Part shown: positions 1 through 17,484 of the stretch, in pieces
Position numbering within the stretch: the stretch's first letter is position 1
Layout: every line of letters starts with the position of its first letter
NCBI GenBank assembly: GCA_963719225.1
Contig: CAVRAY010000001.1
Span: 1,280,001-1,344,000 of the forward strand
DNA from: Thermoanaerobaculia bacterium
GTDB taxonomy: Bacteria; Acidobacteriota; Thermoanaerobaculia; UBA5066
Length of the DNA stretch: 64,000 nt
Direction: 5' to 3'
Translations under genes and position numbers: made by a program
Notes under the pieces: model-generated
Told to the model about the DNA's origin: nothing
Database searches by the model: none
Seen by the model: only the letters and a program-made list of their open reading frames with translations

Positions 1-177
1 GACGATCCGCTCCGCGTGCCGGTCCGCGTGGGAGACTCGCTCGAGGACGTCGAGCGCCGCCTCCTGGAGCGCACGCTCGCCGCGGTGGGCGGCAACAAGA
101 AGAAGGCCGCCGAGATCCTCCGCGTGAGCCTCAAAACCGTCTACAACAAGATCAAGCAATACAAGCTCGAGTCCTGA
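1..177 (+). CDS. C-terminal fragment of a sigma54-dependent Fis-family transcriptional activator (HTH_8)
   Basis: Frame 1 reads ...VGDSLEDVERRLLERTLAAVGGNKKKAAEILRVSLKTVYNKIKQYKLES*, a typical NtrC/Fis HTH tail; the gene runs off the window start. Confidence 0.85.
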   Translation, partial: DDPLRVPVRVGDSLEDVERRLLERTLAAVGGNKKKAAEILRVSLKTVYNKIKQYKLES

Positions 178-195
178 TCCCGGTCCGTTTCCGGA

Positions 196-3100
196 TCAGG
201 GGCCGGATGCGTATTGGCGCGCCACGCGCAGGAGCTCCGCGGGGACGAGGGGCTTCTTGAGAAAGCCCGCGTCGTTTCGCCGGGGAGGCGCGAATCCCGG
301 GGCCGCGATGCCCGACATGACGACGATCGGCAGCGAGGCGAGGGAGGGCTGCTCCTCGATCTTCCGTACGAACGACCAGCCGTTCATCCGCGGCATTTCG
401 AGGTCGACGAGGACGAGGCGCGGGCGGAGTCCGGCGTCGAGGTGCTGCAGAGCCTCGAAGCCGTCCTCGGCCCCGATTCCGCTGAAACCTTCGTCGTCGA
501 GAAGCCGGAGGATGCCGTCGCGCAGCGCGCGGTCGTCGTCCACGACGAGGACGTCCGGCTGGCTTCGCGGCGGAACGCTCTGGCTCCGTCGCCCGGCCCG
601 GCCGGTCGGGCGCCGCACGGTTGCGGCCGCCGCGGCCGTGCTTTCACGCGCCTGCGTCGCCGCGCCGAGGATGCCCTTGACCTCGTGAACACCTCCGTCG
701 TCCACGAGCGCCACGACGTTGCCCGGAATCGGCTTCCCGTCCACGGTGAGATCGCGAACGCCGGTCGTCCTTCCATCCGGATTCTCGATCCGGATCTTCC
801 AGACGGTGGTGCCGATCCGGAGAGAGACGGAATAGAAGGGCCAGGTCCCGGGGATCCGGGGGTTCAGCCTCAGCTCGGCGCCCCTGCGATTCAGGCCGAG
901 AAGGCTCTCCGTGGCGACGCGGTAGAGCCAGCCCGCCGAGCCGGTGTACCAGGTCCATCCCGCCCGACCGAGATGGGCGGGATGTGCCGCGACGTCTCCC
1001 GCCACCACGTACGGCTCCCCTCCGTAGCGGATCGCGGCGGCCTCGGTGCGCGTGTGGTTCACGGGATTCACCATGTGGAAGAGCTCCAGCGCCTCGTCGG
1101 CGGATCCCAGCGCCGCCGCCGCCATGACGACCCATGCGGCGGCGTGCGTGTACTGGCCGCCATTTTCGCGGATGCCCGGGGGATAGCCCTTGATGTAGCC
1201 GGGCTCTTCGGGACCGTGGTCGAACGGAGGGGTGAGAAGCGTGACGATCTCCGCGTCCCGTCTGACGAGCCGCGACCGTACGGCATCCATGGCTCGCTCG
1301 GCGCGGGCTGCCGGTGCCGCGCCGGAGAGCACCGCCCACGACTGGGCGATGGAGTCGATCTGGCCGTCCACGTTCCGGCGTGACCCGAGCGGGGCGCCGT
1401 CGTCGAACGTTCCACGCCGATACCACTCTCCGTCCCACGCGAGGTCGAGCGCGTGACGCAGGCGTTCGGCTTCGCTCCGATAGCGCGCGGCGCGCGCGGA
1501 ATCGCCGCGCGCCTCGCAGAGCGCGGCGAACGGAACGAGGATGGAAAACTGGAAAAAACCGAGCCAGACGCTCTCGCCCCGGCCCTGGGACCCCACCTCG
1601 TTCATGGCGTCGTTCCAGTCCCCCGTGCCGATCAAGGGGAGGCCCTGCGCTCCCGCCGTGAGAGCGGCGTCCATCGCGCGCGCCGCGTGGCCGAAGAGCG
1701 TGTCGCTCTCGGACGAGGTCGCCGGCTCGAGATACGACTCGCGCTCGCCTTCGGCGAGGAGAGGTGCCTCGAGATACGGAGCTCTCTCGTCCCAGACGGA
1801 GGCGTCGCCCGTGACCTCGACGTACCTCATCGCCGCCCACGGAAGCCAGAGGAGGTCGTCCGAGCAGCGCGTTCGCGTGCCGCGCCCGGATGGTTCGTGC
1901 CACCAGTGCTGGACGTCCCCCTCCCGAAACTGGCGGCCGGCGGCCCTGACGAGATGCCCACGTGCGAGATCGGGTCTGATGAGCACGAGCGAGGACACGT
2001 CCTGGAGCTGGTCCCGGAAGCCCCACGCCCCGCCGGGTTGGTAATAGCCCGTACGCGCGAAGACGCGCGAGGCGATCACCTGGCAAGGGAGCCATCGGTT
2101 CACGAGGAGATCGAGAGAGTCGTCGGGAGTCTCGACGACGAGCGCGTCGAGCGTCTCGTCCCAGAAGGATCGGACGCGCTCCCTCTCCCGGGCGGCCTCG
2201 TCCGGCATGGAGAAGCGGGCCGCGAGTCGACGGGCCTCCTCCTCGTCACTTCCCTGGCCGAGGAGGAAAGCGAGCGTCCTGGTTTCGCCCGGCGCGAGAT
2301 TCACGAAGACGTGCAGCGCCGCGCAGGGATCGAAACCGCCGCCCGTGCGGCCGGAAAGTCGGGCGCGGTGCGGACCTTCGGCCGACCGCAGGTTTCTGAG
2401 GGGCCCCAGAAACTCGCGCCGGTCCGCCGTGTAGGAAACGACGGGCTCGCTCGAAGCGAAGAAGGCGACGTGCCCGCTGAAGTCCGCGTTCGCCGGGTTG
2501 CGCGCCAGAATCGCGCGGACGTCCCCCGCGAAAGAGGTGACGACGTGTCGCGGCGCTTCGGGGCGCGGCGGGCCGAGAGCCCACGCGGCGTAGCCGAAGA
2601 TGGAGAGGCGGCGCGCCCGAGCGTTCGTGTTCTCGAGCGTGAGGAGCACGACCTTCACCGGTTCTTCGCGGGCGACGAACGTCTCCAGGGAGTGAGTGAT
2701 TCCCACCGTGGTTCGCCGGAAACGGGTCCGGCCCGCTTCGTGCGTCACGTGCCAGCGCGCCGTCCTATCCCGCGGGAGAGCTCCTGGCGTCGCGCCGAAG
2801 ACGTCGCGCGTCTCGTCGTCGCGCACGAAGACGGCCTCCGGCAGCGGGTCGCTCACCGGGTCGTTCGCGAAAGGCGTCAGGCGGTTTTCCCGGCTGTTTT
2901 CGGCCCAGGTGGTCACGGCGCCGGCTGTCGTCACCAGGGAGCCGAAGCGTGGATTCGCGAGGACGTTCGCCCAGGGGTGCGGCGTCTCGCGTGCCCCGTC
3001 GAGCACGATCTCGTAGGTGCGGCCGCCTTCGCCGAAGCCGCCGAAGCCGTTCGCCATCTTCAGGCCGGCCGGCTCCTCCTCCTCTTCTTCCGGGACGGTT

Positions 3101-6100
3101 CGTGGCCTCTGGGCGGGGGGCGAGGAAGGCTCCACGAGGAAGGGTGCGGCGCGGTCGAGCTGCATCGCGAGGCTCCCGTCGGTTCCGCGGAGAACCGCGC
3201 GCGCGTACGCGAGGAGCGCCCTGTGCTCGTCCGCGCTCAGGAGATCCACGCGCAGGAGGAAGACTCCGCCGCTCTGGCCCGCGCGCGATGCCCAGGGACC
3301 GTGCTCGACGAGAAGCGTGAGGAGGTCGTGCACCTCCTTGCGATAACCCTCCTCGTGCTCGTTCAGGAGGATCAGGTCCGCCGCGAGACCCTTGAGGCGC
3401 CAGTACTCCTGTGCCTCGAGGGCCTGCCGCGCCAGGGCGAGGTCCTGCGCGCGCTCGATGCGCACGGTGAGAAGGGGCAGGTCGCCCGAGATCCCGTGAC
3501 GCCAGAGCGCCGAAACGTCGAGCGTGTTGGCCTCGTGGACCTCGGGTGGCGCGGCGAGCGTCCGATCCGAGCCCACGACCCTCGAGGCCAGCCTCTCGAA
3601 GAGACGCGCTTCCTCGGGCGTCAGGCCGAGATGCCGGACCGCGACCTGCGCATGCGTTCGCGCGAGCGCGAGGGCGCGCACTCCGGCGGAAGGGTCGTGG
3701 TATTTCTGGGCGAAGGCGAGCGCGCCCTCGCGCGTGTCCGCGACGCCCGTCGTGAACGTGAGGCGCGCGATCGCGCCCGGCGCGAGCCGCACACGCTGCC
3801 TCAGGCTGAGAATCGGGTCGAGCACCGTGCCCGTGGTTCCCGTGAGCGCCCGGCTCTCCATCGCCTCCGGATCCGACCCGTCGCGTCCGCGCCCGTAGAA
3901 GCGCGCGCGGTCGGTCTCCCATTCCAGAGGTCCCTGCGGCCGTGCCGCGACCGCGAGGACGTGGACGGCGAAGACCGCCTTCTCGCCGGCCGCCCGCGGG
4001 CGGCGCGCGCAGAGGAGAGCCGAGTCCGAGGAAACCGCTTCCGTCTCGAGGAAGAGCTTGCCGAAGGCGGGATGCGCGACGTCGTCCTGCGCTTTCGCGA
4101 GCGCGATCTCGACGGCGCTCGTCGCCTCGATCTCGCGCGTCGTGCCGCTCAGATTCGTGAGCGTCAGACGGCGGACCTCGACGTCGTCCTCCGGGGAGAC
4201 CGCGATCTCGAGCAGCGACTCGATCTCCGCGTCGCGCCGCCGGAACGACGCGAGCTCCGGAAGAAACGTGACCCGGTAGAGCTCGGGCTCGTGCCGCGTG
4301 GGGGCATACGTGGCAGACCAGACGACGCCGCTGCGCACGTCGCGAAGGTAGAGAGCGTTGGAGACAGGATCGGAAGTGGGATCCTCGCGGTGGCGCGCGA
4401 CCGAGAGGCCGCGCCAGAAGCTCGCGCCTCCGCCCGCCTGTGTGACCGCGGAGACGAGGCTGCCGTTGGAGAGGTACTGGGTGACCGGAAACGGCTGGAG
4501 GGGAGAGCGATGGAGGCGCGGCGCCGCGGCCGGCGAGGTCGGCAGCGGAAGGACCTCCTCTTCCGTGGGGCGCGGCTGGGGCACCGGGGCTTCGCGGGGC
4601 GGACGTTCCTGGAGCAGGAGCTCGGTCGCGCGGACGCGAGGATCGGCATGGAAGCGCCTCACCATCACGTCGTCGAGAAGCACGTTCGCGAACGCGACGA
4701 GGCTCATGCCCTGGTGGTGCGCGAATACCGTGCGGACGACGACGCCGCGACCGTCCGCCGTACGCTGGAGGGCGTGAGGCTCGGCCGGGGCGTCTCCCTC
4801 CGTGTAATCGACCGCATCCCAGAAGCCCCACGGGCCTTCGGCGCCGGCGGCCGAGAATGCGCGCAGGTTCCTCACGGCTTTCACGGGCTGGAAGAGGGCT
4901 GCGAGCGCGGAGGCGTAGGGCGCCACGACGAGGTCCTCGTCGAGGCCCCGGCGAAAGCCGAGCCCGGGGACGCCGAAGGCCCGGTACTGGTGCTCGCCCA
5001 CGAGGTCCGTGACGCGAAACGCGGACTCGGAGGCTCCCCAGGGCACGCCGTGCGCGCGGCCCCACTCCTCCTGACGGCGGATCGCCATCCGGCACGAGGC
5101 GTCGAGGAGAGTCTCCCGATAAGTGCGCGTGAACAGGAGAGGCATCAGATACTCGAACATCGAGCCGCTCCAGGACAGGAGCGTGGGAATCCCGTGCAGG
5201 TTGACGGCGAGGCGCCCGAGCCGGAACCAGTGGCTCTGCGGAACGTCGCCCTTGGCGATGGCGAGGAAGCTCGTGAGCCGCGCCTCCGAGGCGAGAAGGT
5301 CGTAGAACGTCTCGTCGCGTTTCACCGTGTCGTGGATCCCGGGGCGGCAGCCGGTCACGAAGAGTCCCCGCGAGGCGTTGTAGAGGGGGCGAAAGTCCAT
5401 GCCGTCGGCCAGCGCCAGGGCTCGACGGGCGAGGTCCTCCGCGTGAACCCGGTCCTTCTCGGCCGTGAGCTCGCGGAGGCCGTGAGCGAGCACGAGAAGA
5501 CAGGCGGCCAGGTTTCCGCTGTCGACCGTCGAAACATATCGGGGCTCGAGCGGCTCGAGCGTCCGCGTGTCGTACCAGTTCAGGACGTGCCCTCTCCAGC
5601 GCTCGAGACCCTCGACCGTGCGAAGAGTCCGATCGAGTCGCGCGAGGAGGCGGTCCGTCTCGAGCCAGCCGAAGTCGTGGGCGGCGAGGTCCGCGAGCAG
5701 TGCGAGCCCGATGTTCGTGGGGGAAGTCCGCGGCGCGATCAACGGAGGACTCTCGTCCCGTTCGGCGGCGAGATTGTCCGGGACGAGACCGTTCGGGTCC
5801 CCGTGGACGAGCTCCTCGAAGTAGCCCCACGTCTTCCGCGCGGTCTCGAGGAGGAAATCCCGGTCGTCCGACGGAAGCGTCTCGCGGCCGAACGGCGCCG
5901 CGTGGCTGAGCCACCAAGCGAGGACGGGGCTGAATGCCCAGAGGACGAGCAAGGGCGCCGCGAGGGGCAGGGCCGAAGGCCGAATGGCGGCCACCAGGAG
6001 AGCGAGGAGCGTCGCCGAGAGCGGGCTCGAGATCATCTCGCCGAAGAACGAACGCGGTCCCCCCGTGGCGAGGAGCCCGGCGGCGCGCGCCGCGGCCTTG

Positions 6101-8793
6101 GCGAAGGTCTCCCACTCGAGGAGCCGCCGCCCCGTGACGACGAGGCGCACGAGCGTGAGAACGATCGCGTGAACGGATTCGAACGCATAGTGGGGCAGGA
6201 ACGCGAGACCCACGAGCGTCTGGGAGACGGCGGTCTCGAGGTCCCCGGAGAGCTCCCGCGCGAACGCGAAGACCGGTTGCTGCGGGCGCGGGCCCGCGAG
6301 CACGGATCGCAGGACCGCCACGATGGGAAGGGCCAGCACCGACAGCGCGAGGAGCACCCACACGAGGGGATTGCCGGGGAGGACGGTGAGACCGGTGGCG
6401 AAGAGCGCGAGCAGCGCCGGCGGCAGGAGGCTTCGCCTCAGGTTGTCGAGGATCTTCCATTGCGCGATGAGCGGCAGGCGATTGCGTTCCAGCCCGAGCG
6501 GCGTCGGGACGAGCGGAAGGAGCCAGCGCAGGATCTGCCAGTCGCCTCGCACCCAGCGGTGCTGCCGCCGTGCGTGAGCGAGGACGTTGCTCGGGTAATC
6601 GTCGACGACCTCCACGTCCGTCACGAGCGCGGTGCGCGCGTGCAGACCCTCGAACAGGTCGTGCGACAAGAGGGAATTCTCGGGCACGCGGCCCTCGAGG
6701 GCCGTCTGGAAGGCGTCGACGTCGTACAGGCCCTTGCCGGCGAAGACTCCCTCCCCGAAGAGATCCTGGTAGGTATCAGAGACCGCGGTCGTGTACGGGT
6801 CGACGCCCGTGTGGCCCGAGAAGACGCGCGCGAACCGGGACGCCGCCGCGCTCGTCGTCGCGATGCTCACGCGGGGCTGAAGGACGCCGTAGCCCTCCGT
6901 CACGCGGCGGGTCTTGGAATCGACGCGGGGCCGGTTCAGGGGATGCTCGAGGATGCCGACGAGCGTGCGGGCCGTGTCCCGCGGAAGGCGCGTGTCGCTG
7001 TCGAGCGTGAGGACGTAACGCACGGAAGGCAGGAGCGAGAGATTACCCAGCTGAAGCCCGAAGCTCGTGTCGGTCGCGCCGCGCAGCAGGCGATTGAGCT
7101 CCTCGAGCTTTCCTCGCTTCCTCTCCCAGCCCATCCACAGCCCCTCGGACGGGTTCCAGCGCCGTACGCGGTGAAAGAGAAAGAACCGGTCCGCTCCATG
7201 CGTGGCGTTGAGGGCGGCGATTCCGCGCGAGGCGGCTTCGAGGATCGCGTCGTCCTCTGGTTCCGTCGCCTCGACGGCGTCGGCGAAATCGGACAGGATC
7301 GCGAAGTGCACGCGGGGGTCCGGATTGGCGAGAGCCTGGACCTCGAGATGGCGAAGCATGGGCTCGACGGCCGCGACTCCTTCGAACAGCGTCGGAAAGA
7401 CGACGAGCGTCCGGGCGCCTTCGGGGACGCCGTCCCGCACGTCGAGCCGCGGAAGGCGCCGCGGCGGGATCAGCGCGTCGACGCATCTCTGGACGAGGAA
7501 GACGGCGATCTCCGAGACGGGCAGCGCCGCGAGCGCGAAAGCCCACATCTCGACTCCGGGCGCGACGCCGGCCGCGCGCGCGTACGCGGAGACGGCCGCG
7601 AGCCCGGCTGCCGTCAAAGCGAAGATGCTTCCGAGATAGAGCACCGCCGCATGGCGGAAGAACGCACGCCTCAGGCGTGCGATCGGCCCGCGTCGCCCTC
7701 CGACGTCCCTTTCGAACTCGGGGCGGCCGGGTCCGACCAGGAACCATCCGACGTGCGCCTCGCGAGGATCCGTTCCCGGCGAGGTTTCCCGGGCGCGGGC
7801 CGCGGCCCGCCGGGCCACCCGCACCTGATCCTCCCCGCTCGAGGCCGCGAGCTTCTCGATCGCGTGGCGATAGCGGTCGCGCGTCAGGAAGTCCATGCGC
7901 CCGTAGGCGCCGCCCGGGTCGTAACGGAGCGCCTCCTCGACGAGGCTCACGCGCTCCACGAAGGGACCCCAATCGAGCGTTCCGCAGAGCCTCAGAGCGG
8001 AGACCGCGTTCGCGATCGAGACCTGCAGCCCCGCTTGCCGCTGGTTCTCGGCACGGACCGCGTCCTCGAGCGTCTGGCCTCGAGCACGGAGCCGCTCGGC
8101 CACGGCGGAGACGAGCTCGCTGGCGCTCGCGCCGTATTCCCGGGCGCGCTGGAGGAGACGCGCCGCGAACGCCGGCGCCGGCGGGTCGGGGAGGAGGAGC
8201 TCTCGCGTGGAGGGAGCGCGCGCGAGAAGGGCGTCGGCACGGAGCCTGTCCGCGCGGATCGCGAGGAGCTCGTCCGCGAGGCCGCGCAGGTGGTCCACGA
8301 GGGCGGCACGTAGAAGGCTCGGCCAGGCCCAGAGCTCGGCGAGCGTGAGAGGCGTAACCGTCTGGAAAGCCGCGAGAAAACGCTCGAGCCGCTCCGCGTC
8401 GAGCCGGGCGTCGCTCTGCGAAACGATGTCCCAGGCGAGCGCCTCGATCCGAGCCGCGCCACCATGCTCTGCTCCGGCGAGGCGTGGCAGTTTTCGGTTG
8501 TACGCGCGAGGCAGGTCGTGCCGCACGCCGCGCACCTCCGCTTCGAGGAGATGGAAGTTGTCGAGCAGCCACGCGACCGCCGGCGTGACCGCTTCACCGG
8601 CGCGCACGTCGGAGGCGAGGACGCCGTACGCCCGTCGAAGCGCCGGAAGATTCGAGTCGAGGCGCGCCAGCACGTGACGTCCGCCGCCTCGAGGGAGGAC
8701 CGTCCATGCAGCGCCGAGCGAGCGGGCATGTTCCTCGAGGCGGTCGAGGGGCAGAAATTCTCCCAACCCACCGCGCGGGTGCTCTCCGCTCAT
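196..8793 (-). CDS. ndvB: Cyclic beta-1,2-glucan synthase (Cgs/NdvB/ChvB type, GT84 + GH94) with C-terminal response-regulator receiver domain
   Basis: Motifs WMGWERKRGKL, LTLDSDT, GKGLYDV, SHDLFEG, RQHRWVRGDWQ, GFRDQLQD, GDWND and ENGGQYTHAA; REC domain VLVVDDD...VLVDLEMP...FLKKP at the C-terminus. ATG 8793 chosen because a sigma54 promoter overlaps the ORF-track GTG start at 8817. Confidence 0.92.
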   Translation of the reverse strand: MSGEHPRGGLGEFLPLDRLEEHARSLGAAWTVLPRGGGRHVLARLDSNLPALRRAYGVLASDVRAGEAVTPAVAWLLDNFHLLEAEVRGVRHDLPRAYNRKLPRLAGAEHGGAARIEALAWDIVSQSDARLDAERLERFLAAFQTVTPLTLAELWAWPSLLRAALVDHLRGLADELLAIRADRLRADALLARAPSTRELLLPDPPAPAFAARLLQRAREYGASASELVSAVAERLRARGQTLEDAVRAENQRQAGLQVSIANAVSALRLCGTLDWGPFVERVSLVEEALRYDPGGAYGRMDFLTRDRYRHAIEKLAASSGEDQVRVARRAAARARETSPGTDPREAHVGWFLVGPGRPEFERDVGGRRGPIARLRRAFFRHAAVLYLGSIFALTAAGLAAVSAYARAAGVAPGVEMWAFALAALPVSEIAVFLVQRCVDALIPPRRLPRLDVRDGVPEGARTLVVFPTLFEGVAAVEPMLRHLEVQALANPDPRVHFAILSDFADAVEATEPEDDAILEAASRGIAALNATHGADRFFLFHRVRRWNPSEGLWMGWERKRGKLEELNRLLRGATDTSFGLQLGNLSLLPSVRYVLTLDSDTRLPRDTARTLVGILEHPLNRPRVDSKTRRVTEGYGVLQPRVSIATTSAAASRFARVFSGHTGVDPYTTAVSDTYQDLFGEGVFAGKGLYDVDAFQTALEGRVPENSLLSHDLFEGLHARTALVTDVEVVDDYPSNVLAHARRQHRWVRGDWQILRWLLPLVPTPLGLERNRLPLIAQWKILDNLRRSLLPPALLALFATGLTVLPGNPLVWVLLALSVLALPIVAVLRSVLAGPRPQQPVFAFARELSGDLETAVSQTLVGLAFLPHYAFESVHAIVLTLVRLVVTGRRLLEWETFAKAAARAAGLLATGGPRSFFGEMISSPLSATLLALLVAAIRPSALPLAAPLLVLWAFSPVLAWWLSHAAPFGRETLPSDDRDFLLETARKTWGYFEELVHGDPNGLVPDNLAAERDESPPLIAPRTSPTNIGLALLADLAAHDFGWLETDRLLARLDRTLRTVEGLERWRGHVLNWYDTRTLEPLEPRYVSTVDSGNLAACLLVLAHGLRELTAEKDRVHAEDLARRALALADGMDFRPLYNASRGLFVTGCRPGIHDTVKRDETFYDLLASEARLTSFLAIAKGDVPQSHWFRLGRLAVNLHGIPTLLSWSGSMFEYLMPLLFTRTYRETLLDASCRMAIRRQEEWGRAHGVPWGASESAFRVTDLVGEHQYRAFGVPGLGFRRGLDEDLVVAPYASALAALFQPVKAVRNLRAFSAAGAEGPWGFWDAVDYTEGDAPAEPHALQRTADGRGVVVRTVFAHHQGMSLVAFANVLLDDVMVRRFHADPRVRATELLLQERPPREAPVPQPRPTEEEVLPLPTSPAAAPRLHRSPLQPFPVTQYLSNGSLVSAVTQAGGGASFWRGLSVARHREDPTSDPVSNALYLRDVRSGVVWSATYAPTRHEPELYRVTFLPELASFRRRDAEIESLLEIAVSPEDDVEVRRLTLTNLSGTTREIEATSAVEIALAKAQDDVAHPAFGKLFLETEAVSSDSALLCARRPRAAGEKAVFAVHVLAVAARPQGPLEWETDRARFYGRGRDGSDPEAMESRALTGTTGTVLDPILSLRQRVRLAPGAIARLTFTTGVADTREGALAFAQKYHDPSAGVRALALARTHAQVAVRHLGLTPEEARLFERLASRVVGSDRTLAAPPEVHEANTLDVSALWRHGISGDLPLLTVRIERAQDLALARQALEAQEYWRLKGLAADLILLNEHEEGYRKEVHDLLTLLVEHGPWASRAGQSGGVFLLRVDLLSADEHRALLAYARAVLRGTDGSLAMQLDRAAPFLVEPSSPPAQRPRTVPEEEEEEPAGLKMANGFGGFGEGGRTYEIVLDGARETPHPWANVLANPRFGSLVTTAGAVTTWAENSRENRLTPFANDPVSDPLPEAVFVRDDETRDVFGATPGALPRDRTARWHVTHEAGRTRFRRTTVGITHSLETFVAREEPVKVVLLTLENTNARARRLSIFGYAAWALGPPRPEAPRHVVTSFAGDVRAILARNPANADFSGHVAFFASSEPVVSYTADRREFLGPLRNLRSAEGPHRARLSGRTGGGFDPCAALHVFVNLAPGETRTLAFLLGQGSDEEEARRLAARFSMPDEAARERERVRSFWDETLDALVVETPDDSLDLLVNRWLPCQVIASRVFARTGYYQPGGAWGFRDQLQDVSSLVLIRPDLARGHLVRAAGRQFREGDVQHWWHEPSGRGTRTRCSDDLLWLPWAAMRYVEVTGDASVWDERAPYLEAPLLAEGERESYLEPATSSESDTLFGHAARAMDAALTAGAQGLPLIGTGDWNDAMNEVGSQGRGESVWLGFFQFSILVPFAALCEARGDSARAARYRSEAERLRHALDLAWDGEWYRRGTFDDGAPLGSRRNVDGQIDSIAQSWAVLSGAAPAARAERAMDAVRSRLVRRDAEIVTLLTPPFDHGPEEPGYIKGYPPGIRENGGQYTHAAAWVVMAAAALGSADEALELFHMVNPVNHTRTEAAAIRYGGEPYVVAGDVAAHPAHLGRAGWTWYTGSAGWLYRVATESLLGLNRRGAELRLNPRIPGTWPFYSVSLRIGTTVWKIRIENPDGRTTGVRDLTVDGKPIPGNVVALVDDGGVHEVKGILGAATQARESTAAAAATVRRPTGRAGRRSQSVPPRSQPDVLVVDDDRALRDGILRLLDDEGFSGIGAEDGFEALQHLDAGLRPRLVLVDLEMPRMNGWSFVRKIEEQPSLASLPIVVMSGIAAPGFAPPRRNDAGFLKKPLVPAELLRVARQYASGP

Positions 8794-10475: not shown

Positions 10476-12263
10476 ATGTCGCTTGAGACCACAGGAAGTG
10501 GCGCGCGATGGCGGCCGCACGGGATGGACACCCGGCTCGCGGTCGCCATCGGCGTGACGTTCAGCGCGCTTCTGCTTCTCGTTTCCGTGACCTGGGTGAA
10601 CACGTCCCGGCTCATCCAGGACGCCCGGCTCGTGGACCACACCAAAGACGTGATCGGCGAGCTCGAGGGCGCGTTCTCGGCGATCAAGGACGGCGAGACG
10701 AGCCAGCGGGGCTTCCTCCTGACCGGCTCGGACTCCTATCTCGACCCCTACCGGGCCGCCGTCGCCGATCTTCCCCGGCGGCTCGAGCGGATCGCCTCCC
10801 TCACGGCCGACAGTCCCGCCCAGCGGACGCGCGCCACGATGCTCCGGCACCTCACGGAAGAGCGTCTCTCCGAGATGGGCCGCACGATCGAGATGGCCCA
10901 GGGCGGCCGAGAGGATGAGGCGCGGGCTTTCCTGAAGACGGGGGTCGGCAAGAGGACGATGGATGCGATCCGGCAGCTCGTCGTGGAGATGAAGGCGGAA
11001 GAGCGTGCGCTCCTCTCCATCCGGGACCGGCGCTCGAGCGAGACGGCTCGCACCCTGCTCACCACGCTCGGAATCGGCTGCGCGCTCCTCTTCGGCTTTC
11101 TGGTCCTCATCTGGTATCTCATCCGCGCCGACATCACGCGTCGCAACAGCGCCGAATCAGCGATTCGTGAGCGGGAGGCACGCATCCGCCGGCTCATCGA
11201 CGCAAACCTGATCGGCGTTCTCTTCTCGGACGACGGGCACGTGACGGACGCCAACGGGGCGTTCCTCTCGATCATCGGGATCGACCGCGAGAGCTGGAAA
11301 CCGCACACGCACAGCCTTTTCGACTTCACGGCGCCCGAGTTCAAGGAGCTCGACGAAAACTGCGAAAAGGCCCTCCGCGAGACCGGCACGTGCCCCCCCT
11401 ACCAGAAAGAGCTCGTGCGTTTGGACGGGACGCGCGTCCCCGTGCTCTTCGGCGCGACGAACGTGGACCTGGGCGGATCGGGACCGGTCCGTGCGTCGTT
11501 CGTCGTCGATCTCTCGGAGCTCAAGAGGCTCGAGACCGAGCGCAATCGCCTGTACGAGGAAGCTCGTGACGCCGTGAAGGCGCGCGACGCTTTCCTCTCG
11601 GTCGCCGGCCACGAGATCCGGACACCCCTGTCGGCCCTGAACCTGATCGTCTACCAGCTCGCGCGGCAGGTCCGGGCGCTCGGAAACGAAAAGGCGATCG
11701 ACCTCGCGGCGCGGAGCGAAAAACAGGTCGCGCGTCTCATCCGGCTCGCCGACGAGCTGCTCGACGTGTCGCGCATCTCGGCGGGCTCCCTGCACCTCGA
11801 TCCCGAAGAAATGGATCTCTCCCTCCTCGCCCGCGAAGCGGGGGAGAGGCTCGAGGAAAGCGCGCGGCGCGCCGGCTGCGGCCTCACGGTCGAGGCGCCC
11901 GCGGGCGTGACCGGGTTCTGGGATCGCCTCCGGCTGGAGCAGGTCGTCTCGAACCTGCTCACGAACGCCTTGAAGTTCGGGGCCGGCGAGCCCGTGGAAG
12001 TGCGTGTCTCGTCCGTCGGAGACGAGGCGATTCTCCTGGTATGCGACCACGGCATCGGGATCCACGATTCCGACAAGCCGCGGATCTTCGGAAGGTTCGA
12101 GCGAGCCGTCTCACGAGAAACCTACCCCGGCATGGGGCTCGGACTCTGGATCACGCGCGAGATCGTCGAGGCGCACGGGGGAAGGATCGGCGTCGAAAGC
12201 CGTCCCGGCGCCGGAGCCACGTTTCGGGTCACGTTGCCGAGACGAACGGGAGAATTGAAATGA
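10476..12263 (+). CDS. Sensor histidine kinase (CHASE3-PAS-HisKA-HATPase)
   Basis: ETSQRGFLLTG (CHASE3), AGHEIRTPL H-box, NLLTNALKF N-box, DHGIGI, GMGLGL. Confidence 0.92.
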   Translation: MSLETTGSGARWRPHGMDTRLAVAIGVTFSALLLLVSVTWVNTSRLIQDARLVDHTKDVIGELEGAFSAIKDGETSQRGFLLTGSDSYLDPYRAAVADLPRRLERIASLTADSPAQRTRATMLRHLTEERLSEMGRTIEMAQGGREDEARAFLKTGVGKRTMDAIRQLVVEMKAEERALLSIRDRRSSETARTLLTTLGIGCALLFGFLVLIWYLIRADITRRNSAESAIREREARIRRLIDANLIGVLFSDDGHVTDANGAFLSIIGIDRESWKPHTHSLFDFTAPEFKELDENCEKALRETGTCPPYQKELVRLDGTRVPVLFGATNVDLGGSGPVRASFVVDLSELKRLETERNRLYEEARDAVKARDAFLSVAGHEIRTPLSALNLIVYQLARQVRALGNEKAIDLAARSEKQVARLIRLADELLDVSRISAGSLHLDPEEMDLSLLAREAGERLEESARRAGCGLTVEAPAGVTGFWDRLRLEQVVSNLLTNALKFGAGEPVEVRVSSVGDEAILLVCDHGIGIHDSDKPRIFGRFERAVSRETYPGMGLGLWITREIVEAHGGRIGVESRPGAGATFRVTLPRRTGELK

Positions 12264-12366: not shown

Positions 12367-12516
12367 TCAGACGACGCGTCGGCCCCCGATGACCTGGATC
12401 AGGACGACGACGATCGCGATGACGAGCAGGACGTGGATGAAACCGCCCATGGTGTACGACGTGACCATCCCGAGGAGCCATAGCACGAGAAGAATGACGA
12501 AAATGGTCCAGAGCAT
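12367..12516 (-). CDS. lmo0937-family (DUF5670) small membrane protein, copy 1
   Basis: MLWTIFVILLVLWLLGMVTSYTMGGFIHVLLVIAIVVVLIQVIGGRRVV with GGAGG RBS. Confidence 0.88.
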   Translation of the reverse strand: MLWTIFVILLVLWLLGMVTSYTMGGFIHVLLVIAIVVVLIQVIGGRRVV

Positions 12517-12543
12517 GTAGGTTCCCTCCCGTCTGATGGATTG

Positions 12544-12559: not shown

Positions 12560-12620
12560 TGCAAAGACGTGCAAGGAATGGATCGTGCGGTGAGGCGGGG
12601 CGTGAGGGCACCGGCGTGCG

Positions 12621-12920
12621 CTGCGCGCCCTGTTGCCCCGGCGTTCGAAAGCCCGAATACGGCTGAGCGAAAGCGTGACCGGTTCCGGACGGGAGTTCTT
12701 CAAAGCCGCCTGCACGAGGGGCCTCGAGGGCATCGTCTCGAAACGCCGCGACGCGCGGTACCGCTCCGGCCGGGGCGACGCGTGGCTGAAGGCGAAGTGC
12801 CATCGGGAGCAGGAGTTCGTAATCGGGGGATTCACGGAGCCCGAGGGCTCGCGTCCCTTTCTCGGCGCTCTCCTCCTCGGCGTCTACGGCACGAGCGGAA
12901 AACTCGAGCGAGAAGGAGCG
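12621..12920 (+). pseudogene. ligD: Fragment of ATP-dependent DNA ligase (LigD ligase domain)
   Basis: GLEGIVSKRRDARYRSGRGDAWLKAKC...QEFVIGGFTEPEGSRPFLGALLLGVY; lacks the N-terminal adenylation motif and degenerates after about 12910; ends approximate. Confidence 0.75.
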
Positions 12921-12945
12921 CGCGTGAGGGCGCGCGGCCCGGGCG

Positions 12946-13947
12946 TCAGGGCTCCTTCGAGGGCGCTTCGAGGAGGCCGAGCAGGCTCTTTTCCGCCACG
13001 TCGAGCCCCGTCCGCGACGCGAGGGCGTCCACGGATTCGACCGGACGCTCCACGGTGATTCCCTTCTCGAAGTTCTCCAGGATGCGCGGGGCGATGTACG
13101 ACGCGCGGGTGACGGCCGGAGTGTTGTGAAGCGCTTCGGAGGTCTCGCGGACCGCCTCGGCCACGACGCGCTTCGTGGGCGCCTCCCCTCGGGCCGCTGC
13201 CCGCGCGAGCGCGCCCGCGCACAGGAGGCTCCCGGCCCAGGTCCGGAAATCCTTGGCTGAGAATTCACCGTCAATCCGGTCGTGGATGTAGGCGTTGAGA
13301 GCTTCGGGCTTCACGGCCACGAGGGTTCCGTCCTCGTTTTCGTGGCGGAACAGAGGATTGCCTTCCCGTGAGAGCAGCTCCGTGAGGACGCGCACCGCCG
13401 CCCGGTCCCGGATGACCATGCGATGCTCCTTCCCGCTTTTTCCCGTGAATTCGAAAACCACGCCTCCCCGTTCGCGGCGCACGTGCCGCCGGCGGAGCGT
13501 CGTCAGTCCATAGCTGCGGTTCTCCCGCTCGTAAGCCGCGCTTCCCGGACGGACGAAGTGGCACATGAGGATGCGGGCCATGCACGCGAGCACGCGCTCC
13601 TGCGACAGTCCCTTCGACGCGAGATCGGCTGCGACGGCCCTTCTGAGCCTGGGAAGCGACTGGATGAAGCGCCCGAGGCGCGCGAATTTTCGACGATCGG
13701 TCCGCCGGACCCATTGCTCGTGGTAGATGTACTGCCAGCGTCCGGCCCGGTCCCGGCCCACGGCCTGCAGCTTGGAAGCTGCCGAGAGCGAGACGTGGAC
13801 GTTCGTCCAGGCGGGAGGGATCCGCAGCGCGGCAATGCGCTTCAGGACCGAAGGAGGCGCCGGAAAGGAACGGGCGTCGGACCATTCCACCTTCGAACCG
13901 GACGAGCGGCGGAAGCCGGTGCGCTCGAGGCGCTCGATCGAAGTCAT
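12946..13947 (-). CDS. DNA topoisomerase IB (bacterial, poxvirus-like)
   Basis: IPPAWTNV, GRDRAGRWQYIYH, SYGLTTL, FTGKSGKEH, FSAKDFRTW, LHNTPAVTRASYI with catalytic Tyr. Confidence 0.92.
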   Translation of the reverse strand: MTSIERLERTGFRRSSGSKVEWSDARSFPAPPSVLKRIAALRIPPAWTNVHVSLSAASKLQAVGRDRAGRWQYIYHEQWVRRTDRRKFARLGRFIQSLPRLRRAVAADLASKGLSQERVLACMARILMCHFVRPGSAAYERENRSYGLTTLRRRHVRRERGGVVFEFTGKSGKEHRMVIRDRAAVRVLTELLSREGNPLFRHENEDGTLVAVKPEALNAYIHDRIDGEFSAKDFRTWAGSLLCAGALARAAARGEAPTKRVVAEAVRETSEALHNTPAVTRASYIAPRILENFEKGITVERPVESVDALASRTGLDVAEKSLLGLLEAPSKEP

Positions 13948-13959
13948 CGTCCCGTCTTC

Positions 13960-13975
13960 CGCAAGGTCCGAGCCA
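13960..13975 (-). promoter_or_regulatory. sigma54 promoter of topoisomerase IB (near-leaderless)
   Basis: TGGCTCG-GACC-TTGCG; predicted +1 about 2 nt before ATG 13947; no SD. Confidence 0.7.
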
Positions 13976-13990
13976 GGCGGGAAGGAATGC

Positions 13991-14614
13991 TCATCGAGAC
14001 TTCCGGTCGAGGCGGGCCGGCCGCGACCCCGTGCGAGGCGCGCCGCCGAGACCTCGGTATTCCAGCTCGACGCCGCTCCGGGCGTGACGCAGCAGGAGCC
14101 CGCCGCGGCTCATGTCGCCGCGTCCGACGAAGGCGGCCGGAAACCGCAGGCCCTCCCCGAACACCTCCGAGAGGACGACGGCATATTTTTCGGTGGCGAT
14201 GCTTGCGAGCAGAACAACCTCGAGATCCGGGGCCTGCGCGCGCAACGCGGCGGCGTCGCGACGGAAGGGCCCGGTGAAGGCCGGATTCGCCGGGTCGATG
14301 CCGTCGCCGCCGAAGGAAAGCACGCGATCGACGCCCATCGGATGCGTCGGCGGCCTGAGTCCCTCGTTGGGCGTGACGACGAGGACGCCGGGAACGCTTT
14401 CAGGCGGCCGTGCGAACGTGCGCGCGTAGGCGAGCTTGCCCCGGAAGTAGAGGCCGCTCAGGAAGGAAAATACGTCTCCGAGCGGGGCTTCACCGCTGCG
14501 AACGGCCTCGGCGAGCGGGAAGCGCGCACGGGGCGAAAGCAGCAGCGACGCGCGCTTCCCCCGGCATGACGCCGGCGAAAGGACGAAGATTCGGTGAGCT
14601 GTCGCGCTGCTCAG
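13991..14614 (-). CDS. Conserved hypothetical protein; start uncertain (CTG overlapping the upstream TGA)
   Basis: Protein-like stretch RIFVLSPA...FSFLSGLYFRGKLAYA...FVGRGDMSRGGLLLR; no ATG or GTG near the apparent N-terminus. Confidence 0.65.
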   Translation of the reverse strand: MSSATAHRIFVLSPASCRGKRASLLLSPRARFPLAEAVRSGEAPLGDVFSFLSGLYFRGKLAYARTFARPPESVPGVLVVTPNEGLRPPTHPMGVDRVLSFGGDGIDPANPAFTGPFRRDAAALRAQAPDLEVVLLASIATEKYAVVLSEVFGEGLRFPAAFVGRGDMSRGGLLLRHARSGVELEYRGLGGAPRTGSRPARLDRKSR

Positions 14615-14763
14615 ACGACGGGACGCCTGCCTTGAATGACGCGGATCAGGACGACGACGATGGCGATGACGAGAAGGACGTGGATGAAACCGCCCATCGT
14701 GTACGAGGTCACCATCCCGAGAAGCCACAGCACAAGGAGAATGACAAAAATGGTCCAGAGCAT
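14611..14763 (-). CDS. lmo0937-family (DUF5670) small membrane protein, copy 2
   Basis: First 40 aa identical to copy 1; AGGAGG RBS. Confidence 0.88.
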   Translation of the reverse strand: MLWTIFVILLVLWLLGMVTSYTMGGFIHVLLVIAIVVVLIRVIQGRRPVV

Positions 14764-14788
14764 GTTGCTTCCTCCTATTCCCGAACAG

Positions 14789-14804
14789 AGCAACTGCCGT
14801 GCCG
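14789..14804 (-). promoter_or_regulatory. sigma54 promoter
   Basis: CGGCACG-GCAG-TTGCT. Confidence 0.8.
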
Positions 14805-14808
14805 CGCA

Positions 14809-14824
14809 TGGAACGGATCGTGCT
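14809..14824 (+). promoter_or_regulatory. sigma54 promoter of sod, back to back with 14789..14804
   Basis: TGGAACG-GATC-GTGCT, then GGAGGA RBS and ATG 14847. Confidence 0.65.
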
Positions 14825-14846
14825 GTCAATCGGGGAGGAGGACGGC

Positions 14847-15464
14847 ATGGCTCTCTATTCGGCACAGGATTTCACGAGGCTCCTTGGAACGCCGGGGTTC
14901 AGCGACGCACTGCTGACGCAGCATTTCGAGCTCTATCGCGGCTATGTGAAGAACGCGAATGCCCTTCACGACGAGCTCGAGGCCGCGTCACCCGGCAAGT
15001 CGCCTGCTCCGTACTGGTCGGAGCTCAAGCGCCGCTTCGGCTGGGAGTGGAATGGAATGCGGCTTCACGAGATGTATTTTGGAAATCTGACAAAGAACCG
15101 GCCGGCGCTGGAAAAGGGTGCCGGTCTCGGGGCGCAGATCAACCGCGACTTCGGCTCGCACGAGGCGTGGGAGAAGGAATTCCGCGCGACCGGTAGCCTC
15201 CGGGGAATCGGATGGGCCGCGCTCGTGTGGGACGCCCAGGTGCGCCGGCTCTTCAACGTCTGGATCGACGAGCACGACCGCGGCCAGCTCGCCGGGTGCC
15301 CGGTGCTTCTTCTCATGGACGTCTTCGAGCACGCGTTCATGACCGACTACGGCACGAAGCGAGCGGATTACATCGAAGCGTTCCTCGCGGCCGCGGATTG
15401 GGACCTCGCGTCCCACCGCTTCGAGCTCGCGAACGCGCAGGTTCACGTCTCGGCGCACGCGTGA
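14847..15464 (+). CDS. sod: Fe/Mn superoxide dismutase
   Basis: HFELYRGYV, NGMRLHEMYF, GIGWAAL, LLMDVFEHAF metal-ligand motifs. Confidence 0.9.
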   Translation: MALYSAQDFTRLLGTPGFSDALLTQHFELYRGYVKNANALHDELEAASPGKSPAPYWSELKRRFGWEWNGMRLHEMYFGNLTKNRPALEKGAGLGAQINRDFGSHEAWEKEFRATGSLRGIGWAALVWDAQVRRLFNVWIDEHDRGQLAGCPVLLLMDVFEHAFMTDYGTKRADYIEAFLAAADWDLASHRFELANAQVHVSAHA

Positions 15465-15466
15465 GC

Positions 15467-15482
15467 TGGCACGCGGGGTGCA
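15467..15482 (+). promoter_or_regulatory. sigma54 promoter
   Basis: TGGCACG-CGGG-GTGCA directly after the sod stop codon. Confidence 0.65.
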
Positions 15483-15505
15483 GCTCAGGATTCGGGAGGT
15501 GTTGT

Positions 15506-15850
15506 ATGAATCGCAAGTTTTTCTCTTCCGCCCTATCCGTCCTTCTCCTCGGAGGAACGGCCGCCTTCGCGGACGACAAGCCGATGGAGAAGAAAGACGA
15601 AACGAAGGTCACGACGACGGAAGGCACGATGAAATCGAAGGATCACATCGTCGTCGGAGTCGTGAAGGAGTATCGGGCCGGCGAAAAGCTCAAGGTTCTC
15701 GTCGGAAAGAAGACGCATTCGTTCGACCTCGACGAGAAGAAGGTGAGCACCACCGTCGATCCGGCGGTCGCGGTCGGCACCAAGGTGAAGGTCATCGAAT
15801 CGAAGGACGCGAACGGGAACAAGACGCTCACCGTGAACCCCACGAGCTGA
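15506..15850 (+). CDS. Hypothetical secreted protein, paralog of 9985..10428
   Basis: Sec signal MNRKFFSSALSVLLLGGTAAFA; GGAGGT RBS. Confidence 0.78.
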   Translation: MNRKFFSSALSVLLLGGTAAFADDKPMEKKDETKVTTTEGTMKSKDHIVVGVVKEYRAGEKLKVLVGKKTHSFDLDEKKVSTTVDPAVAVGTKVKVIESKDANGNKTLTVNPTS

Positions 15851-15877
15851 GAGCCCCTTTCTCGTCGCACCTTCGAC

Positions 15878-15907
15878 GGGGACGTCCTCACGGACGTCCC
15901 CTTTTTT
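15878..15907 (+). terminator. Rho-independent terminator
   Basis: GGGGACGTCC-TCAC-GGACGTCCCC followed by T6. Confidence 0.85.
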
Positions 15908-15940
15908 CCTTGTTCGTCGTGTAACCCGTTGATGATTCCC

Positions 15941-15956
15941 TGGCACATCAGTTGCT
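15941..15956 (+). promoter_or_regulatory. sigma54 promoter
   Basis: TGGCACA-TCAG-TTGCT, near consensus. Confidence 0.82.
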
Positions 15957-15978
15957 CCTTTCCGTGGGGAGGGCCGCC

Positions 15979-16578
15979 ATGAATCACGCCGCGAAGCGAG
16001 CCGAAGGCCTCAAGAAACCAGCGCCGGAGGGCGTTTTCCTCAGCGACGTCGTCGAGCTGCGCCGGCGCGCGCGGCGCGAGATCGAGGAAGGGGCGGTTAC
16101 GCCCGGATATCGCGCGGACCTCGAGAGTGTCGTGAAGATCCTCAACATCGCGCTGGCGACGGAGATCGTCTGCGTGCTGCGCTACAAGAGGCATTACTTC
16201 ATGGCCGACGGCATCCACGCCGACCCGGTGAAGACCGAGTTCCTCGAACATGCAACGGAAGAGCAGGCGCACGCGGACAAGATCGCGGAACGCATCCGGC
16301 AGCTGGGGGGAGAGCCGGACCTCGATCCGGCCAGTCTGCTGTCGAAGAGTCACACCGAGTATCAGGAAGGAACGTCTCTCCTCGAGATGATCCGGGAGGA
16401 TCTCGTGGCGGAGCGCATCGCCATCGAGTCCTACAAGGAGATGATCGCGTTCGTCGGCGAGAACGATCCCACGACGCGCCGGCTGTTCGAGTGGATCCTC
16501 GGCCAGGAAGAGGAGCACGCGGACGACATGGCGCATCTCCTCGTCTCCTTCGACGGAGAGAAAAAAGGGGGCACCTAG
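15979..16578 (+). CDS. Ferritin-like / bacterioferritin-family protein
   Basis: ATEIVCVLRY, EEQAHAD, EDLVAERIAI and EEEHADD di-iron motifs. Confidence 0.88.
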   Translation: MNHAAKRAEGLKKPAPEGVFLSDVVELRRRARREIEEGAVTPGYRADLESVVKILNIALATEIVCVLRYKRHYFMADGIHADPVKTEFLEHATEEQAHADKIAERIRQLGGEPDLDPASLLSKSHTEYQEGTSLLEMIREDLVAERIAIESYKEMIAFVGENDPTTRRLFEWILGQEEEHADDMAHLLVSFDGEKKGGT

Positions 16579-17447
16579 GCCACCCGTCTCTTCCGCGGGG
16601 CCTTTCCCCCGCGGCGGGCGACGCTCGCACGCAACGCGTCCATCAGGTCGATCACACGGCCCTCTTCCTCCGGCTCCCCGGCGGCGGCGGCCGGAGCGGA
16701 GACGGAGGCTCCCTTCCTGGCGAGCAGCTTCTTCAGCGCCGTTCGATAGCGGTCGGGGTATTTCGCCGGATCGAGCGCCTCCTCCGACATCTGGTCGATG
16801 AGGAGGCGCGCCATCTTGATTTCACCGGTGCCCGCGGACAGGGATCCGGCGGCCGGCGGCGAAGCCACCTCCTCGAACGGCCGGAGCAGAATCGCGGCCA
16901 GGCCGTGCGGGATCGCGACGACGGCGGCCAGATGCTCGCGGGTCCTCAGCCTCAAGCGCCCCAGGCCGACGCGGTCCGAAGCCGCCAGGGCGTTGCGGAA
17001 GACCGCGAAGGACCGTGCTCCTCCTTCGTCCGGGATGACGTAGTAAGGCTGGTCATAGGTCAGCGGGTCGATGCGTCCCGCGCCCACGAACGAGAGGATC
17101 TCGAGCGCGTGGGCCTCGGTGCCGGCTCCCGCGTCCTTGCGCGCAGACGCGAGCTCTTCCTTTTCCACGACCGCCCATTTTCCCTTCGACACCTCGTATC
17201 CCTTCACCACGTCGTCGTCCGCGACTTCCACGTCCTCTCTGCTGCAGAACTTCCGGTATCGGATCGGGGCGAGGTCCTTTCGATGAAGAAGGTGGAAGCC
17301 CACGTGCTCGCGGGCGTCTACGGCGGGCACGAGCTCGACGGGAATCCCGACGAGCCCGAACGAAATCCTTCCCTTCCAGACCGCACGCCTAGCCGTGCGC
17401 GGAGAGTTCTTTACGTGAGCTTTCTTCTTCGTGGAGCTCTCGCGCAT
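16575..17447 (-). CDS. ku: Ku protein (NHEJ)
   Basis: RAVWKGRISFGLVGIPV, VVKGYEV, YPDRYR, VIDLMDALRASV; GAGGAGGT RBS before ATG 17447. Confidence 0.92.
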   Translation of the reverse strand: MRESSTKKKAHVKNSPRTARRAVWKGRISFGLVGIPVELVPAVDAREHVGFHLLHRKDLAPIRYRKFCSREDVEVADDDVVKGYEVSKGKWAVVEKEELASARKDAGAGTEAHALEILSFVGAGRIDPLTYDQPYYVIPDEGGARSFAVFRNALAASDRVGLGRLRLRTREHLAAVVAIPHGLAAILLRPFEEVASPPAAGSLSAGTGEIKMARLLIDQMSEEALDPAKYPDRYRTALKKLLARKGASVSAPAAAAGEPEEEGRVIDLMDALRASVARRGGKAPRKRRVA

Positions 17448-17468
17448 CGAAACCTCCTCCCGCGAGCT

Positions 17469-17484
17469 CGCAATGAACGTGCCG
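17469..17484 (-). promoter_or_regulatory. sigma54 promoter of ku
   Basis: CGGCACG-TTCA-TTGCG. Confidence 0.8.

Follow-up and report, generated by a model that had tools for sequence, protein, structure and literature searches.

A candidate sigma-54-dependent stress regulon in Thermoanaerobaculia and the activator clade that may switch it

What controls a dense group of probably stress-related genes in a genome of Thermoanaerobaculia (assembly GCA_963719225.1)? We studied a window of 64,000 nucleotides (nt), positions 1,280,001 to 1,344,000 of the forward strand of contig CAVRAY010000001.1, which contains an island of genes for a Ku protein, a ferritin-like protein, a superoxide dismutase-like protein (sod), topoisomerase IB (topIB), two lmo0937-family membrane peptides, and a cyclic glucan synthase-type protein. 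The nearest database records are from Thermoanaerobaculia (Ku is 79% identical). The initial annotation of this sequence had proposed that sigma-54 (RpoN) runs these genes as a general-stress island, from nine -24/-12 promoters next to a sigma-54 activator.

We propose that probable stress genes with sigma-54-type promoters form a set that spans the genome and is most concentrated in this island, and that the set is likely switched by one clade of proteins with receiver and AAA+ domains (REC-AAA+), which probably act without enhancers. Based on comparative sequence analysis, we put the probability of this reading at roughly 0.62.

Probable sigma-54 promoters in the island and across the genome

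The window contains ten candidate promoters (boxes) of the -24/-12 type:

8807-8821, minus strand: box 13 nt before the ATG of the glucan synthase gene; predicted leaderless
9948-9962, plus strand: box 9 nt past the stop codon of a desaturase gene and 22 nt before the ATG of the gene at 9985
12545-12559, minus strand: box 28 nt before the ATG of lmo0937 copy a
13961-13975, minus strand: box 13 nt before the ATG of topIB; predicted leaderless
14790-14804, minus strand: box 26 nt before the ATG of lmo0937 copy b
14809-14823, plus strand: box 23 nt before the ATG of sod
15467-15481, plus strand: box 2 nt past the stop codon of sod, upstream of a gene for a secreted paralogue of the 9985 protein
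15941-15955, plus strand: box 23 nt before the ATG of the ferritin-like gene
17470-17484, minus strand: box 22 nt before the ATG of ku
52043-52057, plus strand: box 49 nt before the CBS-domain gene

The nine boxes of the island lie where the initial annotation had placed them, to within 1 nt, and so does the one before the CBS-domain gene. Each of the ten has one or two mismatches to TGGCACG-N4-TTGC, and the GG and the GC are separated by 10 nt within a TGGCAC-N5-TTGC pattern, as is characteristic of sigma-54 promoters. It had also been noticed that some boxes start just past an upstream stop codon, and the distances are indeed short (0 nt for ku, 2 nt for the box at 15467, 9 nt for the box at 9948, and 15 nt for topIB). 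The boxes of lmo0937 copy b and sod are back to back, with 4 nt between them.

Chance was ruled out as the origin of these boxes by shuffled sequences, by wrong-spacer controls, and by comparison to the rest of the genome. TGGCA-N7-TGC occurs four times, as compared to 0.66 ± 0.74 times in shuffles. For genome-wide counts, we used a home-made gene caller, which identified 4038 genes. There are 54 sites with the right spacer and at most two mismatches that lie 10-35 nt before gene starts, as compared to 6, 3, 7, and 6 sites if the spacer is 2 nt shorter, 1 nt shorter, 1 nt longer, or 2 nt longer. Using a scoring matrix that was trained on 46 sites, all of them outside the window, the ten sites in the window score 12.0-17.6 bits. 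Across the genome, 65 of the 4038 called genes have a site of at least 12 bits within 8-60 nt of their start. The region from 8701 to 17600 contains nine sites of at least 12 bits, while the mean across 532 genome tiles is 0.36. The next densest tiles are two further islands of the same kind (contig C1, 2.32 Mb and 2.49 Mb). We conclude that the sigma-54 promoters are very probably real.

The spacing between the boxes and the gene starts fits a promoter role as well, if indirectly, as it has two peaks and an empty zone. Among the 109 sites in the genome with at least 11 bits and at -30 to +100 nt relative to a start, none lie 0-9 nt upstream, 18 lie 12-15 nt before the start, and 34 lie 20-32 nt before the start. 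A Shine-Dalgarno word is present for 2 of the 18 sites in the short-distance class and for 26 of the 34 in the long-distance class, although the latter proportion is partly circular because our gene caller rewards Shine-Dalgarno words. In relatives, the corresponding counts are 1 of 9 and 43 of 49. If transcription starts about 12-13 nt past the GC, then the mRNAs of the 12-15 nt class, including those of topIB and the glucan synthase, should be leaderless. Leaderless sigma-54 transcripts are thus a prediction of this analysis.

Genome-wide, about 100 genes have candidate boxes, so the scan that the initial annotation suggested shows a set that reaches well past the window. We selected 20 regions and ran 52 proteins encoded there against Pfam. 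Besides the two further islands, the boxed genes outside of the island encode three BON proteins, a DUF6496 protein, a hemerythrin, two AI-2E proteins, two BrkB proteins, SodC, a DUF421 protein, and a CBS-domain protein, as well as UDG, DoxX, holin-X, DUF4136, and CsbD proteins. In all, more than twenty genes whose families suggest a protective role under stress are preceded by sigma-54-type promoter sequences. The lmo0937, BON, ferritin-like, CBS, YihY, and DUF421 families are linked to stress. In Sphingopyxis, csbD and ku-ligD are described as direct targets of the general stress sigma factor EcfG (PMC7083833). Judging from the families of the targets, we consider it quite likely that the set serves general stress.

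RpoN has other duties in this organism. The ammonium transporter operon amtB-glnK, which is a classic sigma-54 target, carries a box and adjoins a gene for a NifA-like activator (G000:C1:118400-123500, locus L096; G000 is the genome under study). An AT-rich palindrome lies about 90 nt upstream of amtB-glnK and could be a normal enhancer. Many of the other boxes also adjoin other activators, and these are probably ordinary local circuits. So, of the idea of an RpoN-run general-stress island, the RpoN regulon is supported, while the single island gives way to a genome-wide set, and amtB-glnK shows that sigma-54 is not devoted to stress alone.

The boxes are often conserved within the order, as had been predicted, but conservation is patchy across the phylum. 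(Conservation counts are over related genomes, which are not independent. Some tallies count G000 and the unpublished genome G004 as a single row apiece, and one of the 30 ku loci below comes from G004; none of the conclusions depends on it.) In the order, csbD has a box of at least 10 bits in 22 of 29 orthologues, and the second ku paralogue, which is the one in the island, has a box directly upstream at 8 of 11 loci, or at 10 of 11 if we count boxes before a small gene just upstream. The background rate of boxes in the genome is 153 of 4038 genes (about 4%). Across the class, 6 of the 30 best-scoring ku loci have a box, and the other ku is mostly without one. DUF1328 genes have a site of at least 7 bits in 18 of 19 cases, and most of these sites show a TTCGC variant, with the distance unchanged. 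Among orthologues, the cores are retained even where the genes and the sequence upstream differ. In a genome from the same genus (G088, locus L042), the island breaks off past sod and a different contig carries the activator operon, yet the boxes are kept.

Could another sigma factor control these genes? The genome contains one intact rpoN, as sigma-54 control requires, and 28 full activator AAA+ domains of the GAFTGA type. Its other sigma factors are RpoD, a 295-amino acid protein similar to RpoD and RpoS, and 19 proteins of the size of extracytoplasmic function (ECF) sigma factors. We found no member of the SigB or RpoS families: the second sigma factor with region 3 scores 198 against a cut-off of 379 for RpoS and 117 against 234 for SigB/F/G. 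The related genomes G036 and G068 each encode just one sigma factor with region 3. The anti-sigma factor NepR was not found in any of five genomes, and the control from Caulobacter was detected. Neither the EcfG motif (GGAAC-N16-CGTT, from PMC7083833) nor the SigB motif is present in 10 upstream regions from the window or in 77 orthologous ones. Control by EcfG, SigB, or RpoS is therefore unsupported.

The neighbouring activator, its clade, and the enhancer question

The window begins within an activator gene, and we examined the full protein, as the initial annotation had advised. It has 487 amino acids (gene start at G000:C1:1278714) and consists of receiver, AAA+, and helix-turn-helix (HTH) domains. 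The receiver aspartate, Walker A and B motifs, GAFTGA, arginine finger, sensor II, and C-terminal HTH are all intact. It belongs with group 1 (NtrC-like) of the bacterial enhancer-binding proteins and not with group 5, as HTH_8 is present. The activator does sit beside the island in that its HTH_8 tail occupies positions 1-177, but its end lies 8.6 kb from the first box. The closest paralogue (53% identity) sits in the second island of the genome.

Of the 41 genomes of the order, 37 have a member of this activator's clade, usually just one. All 20 of the neighbourhoods that we examined, which span three families, have boxes, with a mean of 3.7 boxes per locus as compared to 0.49 per 19-kb tile of G000. 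An lmo0937-type gene is near the activator in 16 of the 20. In three genomes of family f1, which includes the window activator, the activator operon has its own -24/-12 box. This box precedes a gene for a 226-amino acid protein that lies ahead of the activator. Letters similar to GTAAG[AG]AT are kept just upstream of this box in the three genomes (G000:C1:1277960-1277990, L097), and they might serve basal expression as the -10 element of a sigma-70 promoter.

The 226-amino acid protein has no sensor domain, and its histidine is invariant in all nine aligned sequences. It is modelled as DHp plus CA domains (pLDDT 84.7) and resembles kinases in the PDB. It has no match to Pfam's HATPase families in f1 and weak matches in families f2 and f3, and it is shortened to 75-84 amino acids in two genomes. 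In phosphotransferases such as ChpT and Spo0B, a DHp domain with a conserved histidine is combined with a degenerate ATP-binding domain and no sensor, and the small protein is a candidate for this kind. Hybrid kinases are frequently encoded near the activator, and the small protein may be the hub of a phosphorelay.

The clade extends beyond the Acidobacteria, as our tree places proteins from Burkholderiaceae within it. In Ralstonia wenshanensis, two members flank rpoN2, together with genes for DUF1328, YihY, and AI-2E proteins, and 6 of the 17 genes that we checked, including rpoN2, have boxes of at least 10 bits. Burkholderia arboris has an activator of the clade, a second rpoN with a box, a DUF1328 gene, and two further boxed genes (which we take to be YciE-like and PfpI-like). 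A Cupriavidus paper on transcription start sites gives no RpoN motifs. From its distribution and its neighbours, we think it fairly likely that this clade provides the master activator of the set.

In families f5 and f13 (L137, L138, L139, L141, L142, L145), a related activator and a small histidine protein are encoded between atpC-like and topA-like genes. In the G022 copy, the HTH is degenerate and the basic tail is long.

How might the activator find its promoters? The initial annotation reasoned that enhancers must lie in coding DNA or else that the activator does without them. We favour the second option because the HTH has been lost in orthologues and because there is no shared upstream motif. 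The HTH is absent from all 10 orthologues that we examined from the sister family f2 and from the orthologue in G330 (family f3). These proteins are REC-AAA+ without a DNA-binding domain, which is the domain makeup of group 5. They end 15-35 residues past the AAA+ lid, and 28-47% of the residues in this tail are lysine or arginine. HTH_8 is absent from all of the best 120 homologues of one f2 protein, which have 408-432 amino acids, so we reject assembly error as the cause. A single loss of the HTH is rejected by the approximately unbiased (AU) test (p = 0.0019), based on a quick tree; the group that was tested was defined by the HTH trait, after a first tree. The HTH thus appears to have been lost twice within the clade. 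The activator of G080 keeps a degenerate recognition helix. In G000, one other activator lacks an HTH match, possibly due to a frameshift (G000:C2:709336-710445 and the region of C1:3817093).

The HTH-less genomes retain boxes before ku, csbD, and lmo0937. The five that we searched contain one member of the clade each, along with 9-14 further activators (E of 1e-60 or better), and no second clade member was found in them. We looked for a palindrome of 14-18 nt within 200 nt upstream in non-redundant regions, and we found no shared one in 51 regions from genomes with the HTH or in 30 from genomes without it; a planted control was recovered. A weak GGAA..TTCC pattern from a first run of expectation maximization, which scored slightly above three controls, disappeared after we masked Shine-Dalgarno sequences and matched the backgrounds to each set. 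With masking, the scores were 15-41, as compared to 21-57 for random sets and 162 for the planted control. Counting dyads gave only weak, codon-like, or redundant matches for an upstream enhancer. On balance, the comparison of these sequences tips us slightly towards an activator that acts enhancer-free.

The proposed mechanism is as follows. Hybrid sensor kinases would pass phosphate via the sensor-less histidine protein to the receiver aspartate of the activator. The activated hexamer would then remodel sigma-54 holoenzyme at bare -24/-12 cores. It might act from solution or through non-specific contact of the HTH with DNA, or of the basic tail where the HTH was lost. Transcription would start about 12-13 nt past the GC, so that the mRNAs of topIB and the glucan synthase would be leaderless and the others would have leaders of 10-16 nt, and the box ahead of the activator operon would provide positive feedback. 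The module would fill the role that SigB, RpoS, or EcfG has in other bacteria.

Several observations weigh against this proposal. As to the regulon, no member of the clade was found in 4 of the 41 genomes of the order; the related activator of f5 and f13 has no stress gene within 1.5 kb; and a Paraburkholderia locus has a box before just 1 of 16 genes. Conservation of the boxes is incomplete: a score of 10 bits is attained before just 8 of 19 DUF1328 genes, and 8 of 29 ferritin-like orthologues have a box directly upstream (13 of 29 if we include boxes before a gene just upstream, in operons). Outside the order the link weakens, as lmo0937 has a box in 9 of 28 cases across the phylum and ku has none in 11 cases from families f5, f13, f14, and f15 of the class. 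There are also the 19 sigma factors of ECF size, a grouping by size. As to the mechanism, the HTH is well conserved in f1, including in the window activator. In f2, the Walker A motif has changed from GESG to G[AQP]SG, which makes the activity of those activators uncertain. The gap to the upstream gene has a median of 45 nt, as compared to 65 nt for other sigma-54 sites, which we do not count as shorter. Finally, an enhancer-free activator should also fire the promoters of other activators, and the proposal leaves this specificity unexplained.

Some of these points suit a more conventional view, in which the promoters are real and linked to stress and the HTH binds enhancers that are degenerate, distant, downstream, or within genes (of the sort described for targets of Nla28 in Myxococcus), while HTH-less proteins rely on a partner protein or on hetero-hexamers. 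Both f1 and Burkholderiaceae conserve SLKT[VI]YNK/R as the recognition helix, the genome has four genes of the HU/IHF family, and sigma-54 promoter regions within genes are described for Myxococcus xanthus (bioRxiv 10.1101/2021.11.28.470282). We nevertheless consider this view unlikely: no motif rose above random within 200 nt upstream, the upstream neighbours change freely, two boxes are back to back and 4 nt apart, and the HTH-less genomes have no second clade member to serve as a partner.

It is less probable still that the promoters are real but do not form one regulon, with several of the 28 activators sharing the genes and the neighbouring activator linked to them only by co-transfer of stress islands. 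Many boxes do adjoin other activators (as with amtB-glnK and its NifA-like neighbour), a long distance separates the activator from the island in G088, and conservation varies from gene to gene. But it is a single clade, mostly in single copy, that is accompanied by boxes in all 20 neighbourhoods from three families, and the same clade occurs with boxes, rpoN2, and DUF1328 in R. wenshanensis and B. arboris. The idea that sigma-54 is a repressor or insulator here, or that the genes are part of a programme for development or dormancy, with transcription by an ECF or group-2-like sigma factor, can draw on the 295-amino acid and ECF-sized sigma factors and on the antagonistic role proposed for Ralstonia RpoN2 (PMC4676750), but it is very improbable given boxes that lie on the gene strand and at promoter distance with the 0-9 nt zone empty, relatives (G036 and G068) with a single region-3 sigma factor, and no EcfG or SigB motif in the 10 window and 77 orthologous upstream regions.

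Genes of the island

The genes of the island and the CBS-domain gene are:

1..177, plus strand: HTH_8 tail of the sigma-54 activator (REC-AAA+-HTH), by Pfam
196..8793, minus strand: GH94/glucoamylase-like cyclic glucan synthase-type protein with a C-terminal receiver, 2865 amino acids
9985..10428, plus strand: secreted or lipoprotein-like protein without a Pfam family; a family of 11, with boxes across relatives
10476..12263, plus strand: CHASE3-PAS histidine kinase, without its own box
12367..12516, minus strand: lmo0937-family (DUF5670) membrane peptide, copy a, by Pfam and NCBIfam
12946..13947, minus strand: DNA topoisomerase IB, by Pfam
14611..14763, minus strand: lmo0937-family peptide, copy b
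14847..15464, plus strand: Fe/Mn superoxide dismutase-like protein (C-terminal domain), below NCBIfam cut-offs
15506..15850, plus strand: secreted protein related to the 9985 protein, without a family; the two cluster together
15979..16578, plus strand: ferritin-like protein, by Pfam and NCBIfam
16575..17447, minus strand: Ku, second paralogue, by Pfam and NCBIfam
52107..52580, plus strand: tandem CBS-domain protein

Pfam and NCBIfam bear out the initial identifications of the glucan synthase, both lmo0937 peptides, topoisomerase IB, superoxide dismutase, the ferritin-like protein, Ku, and the CBS-domain protein. The protein encoded after the 15467 box had been called a secreted paralogue, and although it matches no family, the clustering of the two secreted proteins agrees. 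Ku and LigD had been listed together among the stress genes; Ku is present, but the island contains only a ligD-like ligase fragment (about 12633-12920, between lmo0937 copy a and topIB). The DNA just upstream of this fragment resembles a decayed copy of the divergent promoter pair of lmo0937b and sod (window 12560-12920).

We set the start of the glucan synthase by hand at 8793, while the gene caller chose 8673; the orthologue at locus L113 likewise starts 13 nt past its box. The receiver domain at the C-terminus of the glucan synthase (window 196-600, minus strand) is also fused to the L113 orthologue, so this enzyme is possibly controlled by phosphorylation. Neither the desaturase nor the CHASE3 kinase within the island has a site of its own, and the kinase is a candidate input to the regulon. 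An open reading frame of about 200 amino acids after lmo0937 copy b (13991-14630, minus strand) has no match in Pfam or NCBIfam and no box of its own.

The other ku of this genome has no box. In relatives, the widespread ku paralogue often has a TA-N3-T word, which is sigma-70-like, about 7 nt before its ATG (L031, L016-L038). This suggests that the widespread ku may have a housekeeping role and a leaderless mRNA, alongside the copy under sigma-54. Elsewhere in the genome, the sequence around C2:819-821 kb looks as though it came from another source (the contamination of the assembly is given as 6.2%).

Comparison with known systems

Three regulators from the sigma-70 family are known to run general stress responses: EcfG with PhyR and NepR (Alphaproteobacteria), SigB (Bacillota), and RpoS (Gammaproteobacteria). 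A sigma-54 version, if true, would add a fourth design. We did not find a sigma-54-run general stress regulon in the literature that we searched, which was mostly open-access; lists of RpoN targets in supplements could bear on this. Nor did we find that a general-stress regulator had been assigned for Acidobacteriota in that literature, and the word Acidobacteria does not appear in the accessible text of two comparative studies of sigma-54 (PMC3162934, PMC12316311). Each part of the proposal has a precedent (sigma-54 regulons, enhancer-free activators, and stress gene sets), and it is the combination that is new.

The responses run by EcfG/PhyR/NepR, SigB, and RpoS resemble this one in their overlapping kinds of targets, input from multiple kinases, and autoregulation. 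They differ in using sigma-70-type promoters instead of -24/-12 promoters, and an anti-sigma factor or a dedicated sigma factor where the switch here would be an ATP-driven activator. A still more tentative extension, to which we give slightly less than even odds from these sequence comparisons, is that this is a fourth general-stress architecture. An enhancer-free AAA+ activator (with the HTH lost at least twice and a basic tail) would act like an alternative sigma factor over dozens of bare and partly leaderless promoters, in cells with 10-28 activators, and the pairing of the clade with its own rpoN2 would account for the orphan RpoN2 locus in Burkholderiaceae.

Precedents for enhancer-free activation include Rrp2 (PMC1976401) and FlgR and CtcC (PMC7175178, PMC3162934). 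Like the orthologues from f2 and G330, the group 5 proteins FlgR of Helicobacter and CtcC of Chlamydia (and also FleT of Rhodobacter) are REC-AAA+ without an HTH (PMC7175178, PMC3162934). Unlike in group 5, the loss happened twice here, within a clade that otherwise keeps the HTH, and a stretch rich in lysine and arginine replaces the tail. Chlamydia and the epsilon-proteobacteria are described as having one activator (PMC3162934), while the HTH-less genomes here have at least 10-15. The targets also differ, as they are stress genes here, and the window protein itself is not in group 5. Because intact, degenerate, and lost forms of the HTH exist within one order, the rule that the specificity of sigma-54 comes from enhancers can be tested.

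In the Rrp2-RpoN-RpoS pathway of Borrelia, the activator bears an HTH and a kinase gene lies just upstream, as here, and Rrp2 is reported to be enhancer-independent (PMC1976401). Rrp2 works via one promoter (rpoS) and a second sigma factor, whereas the boxes here are directly before effector genes. In M. xanthus, the sigma-54 activator Nla28 controls a large regulon that is associated with stress, with some promoter regions within genes (bioRxiv 10.1101/2021.11.28.470282). The targets named for it are developmental genes with regulatory, metabolic, and envelope functions, and the likeness to Nla28 is by description.

A further parallel is RSp1667 and RSp1668 of Ralstonia, near RpoN2 (RSp1671). 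Their R. wenshanensis homologues belong to the same activator clade, with boxes at DUF1328, YihY, and AI-2E genes; the correspondence between the genes of R. wenshanensis and the locus tags of strain GMI1000 is inferred from gene order. Unlike the locus studied here, theirs has its own second sigma-54. In a study of Ralstonia, no role in metabolism or virulence was found for rpoN2, and RSp1667/1668 are listed without a function (PMC4676750). If our proposal is true, then it offers a testable function for the second rpoN and the neighbouring activators in Burkholderiaceae.

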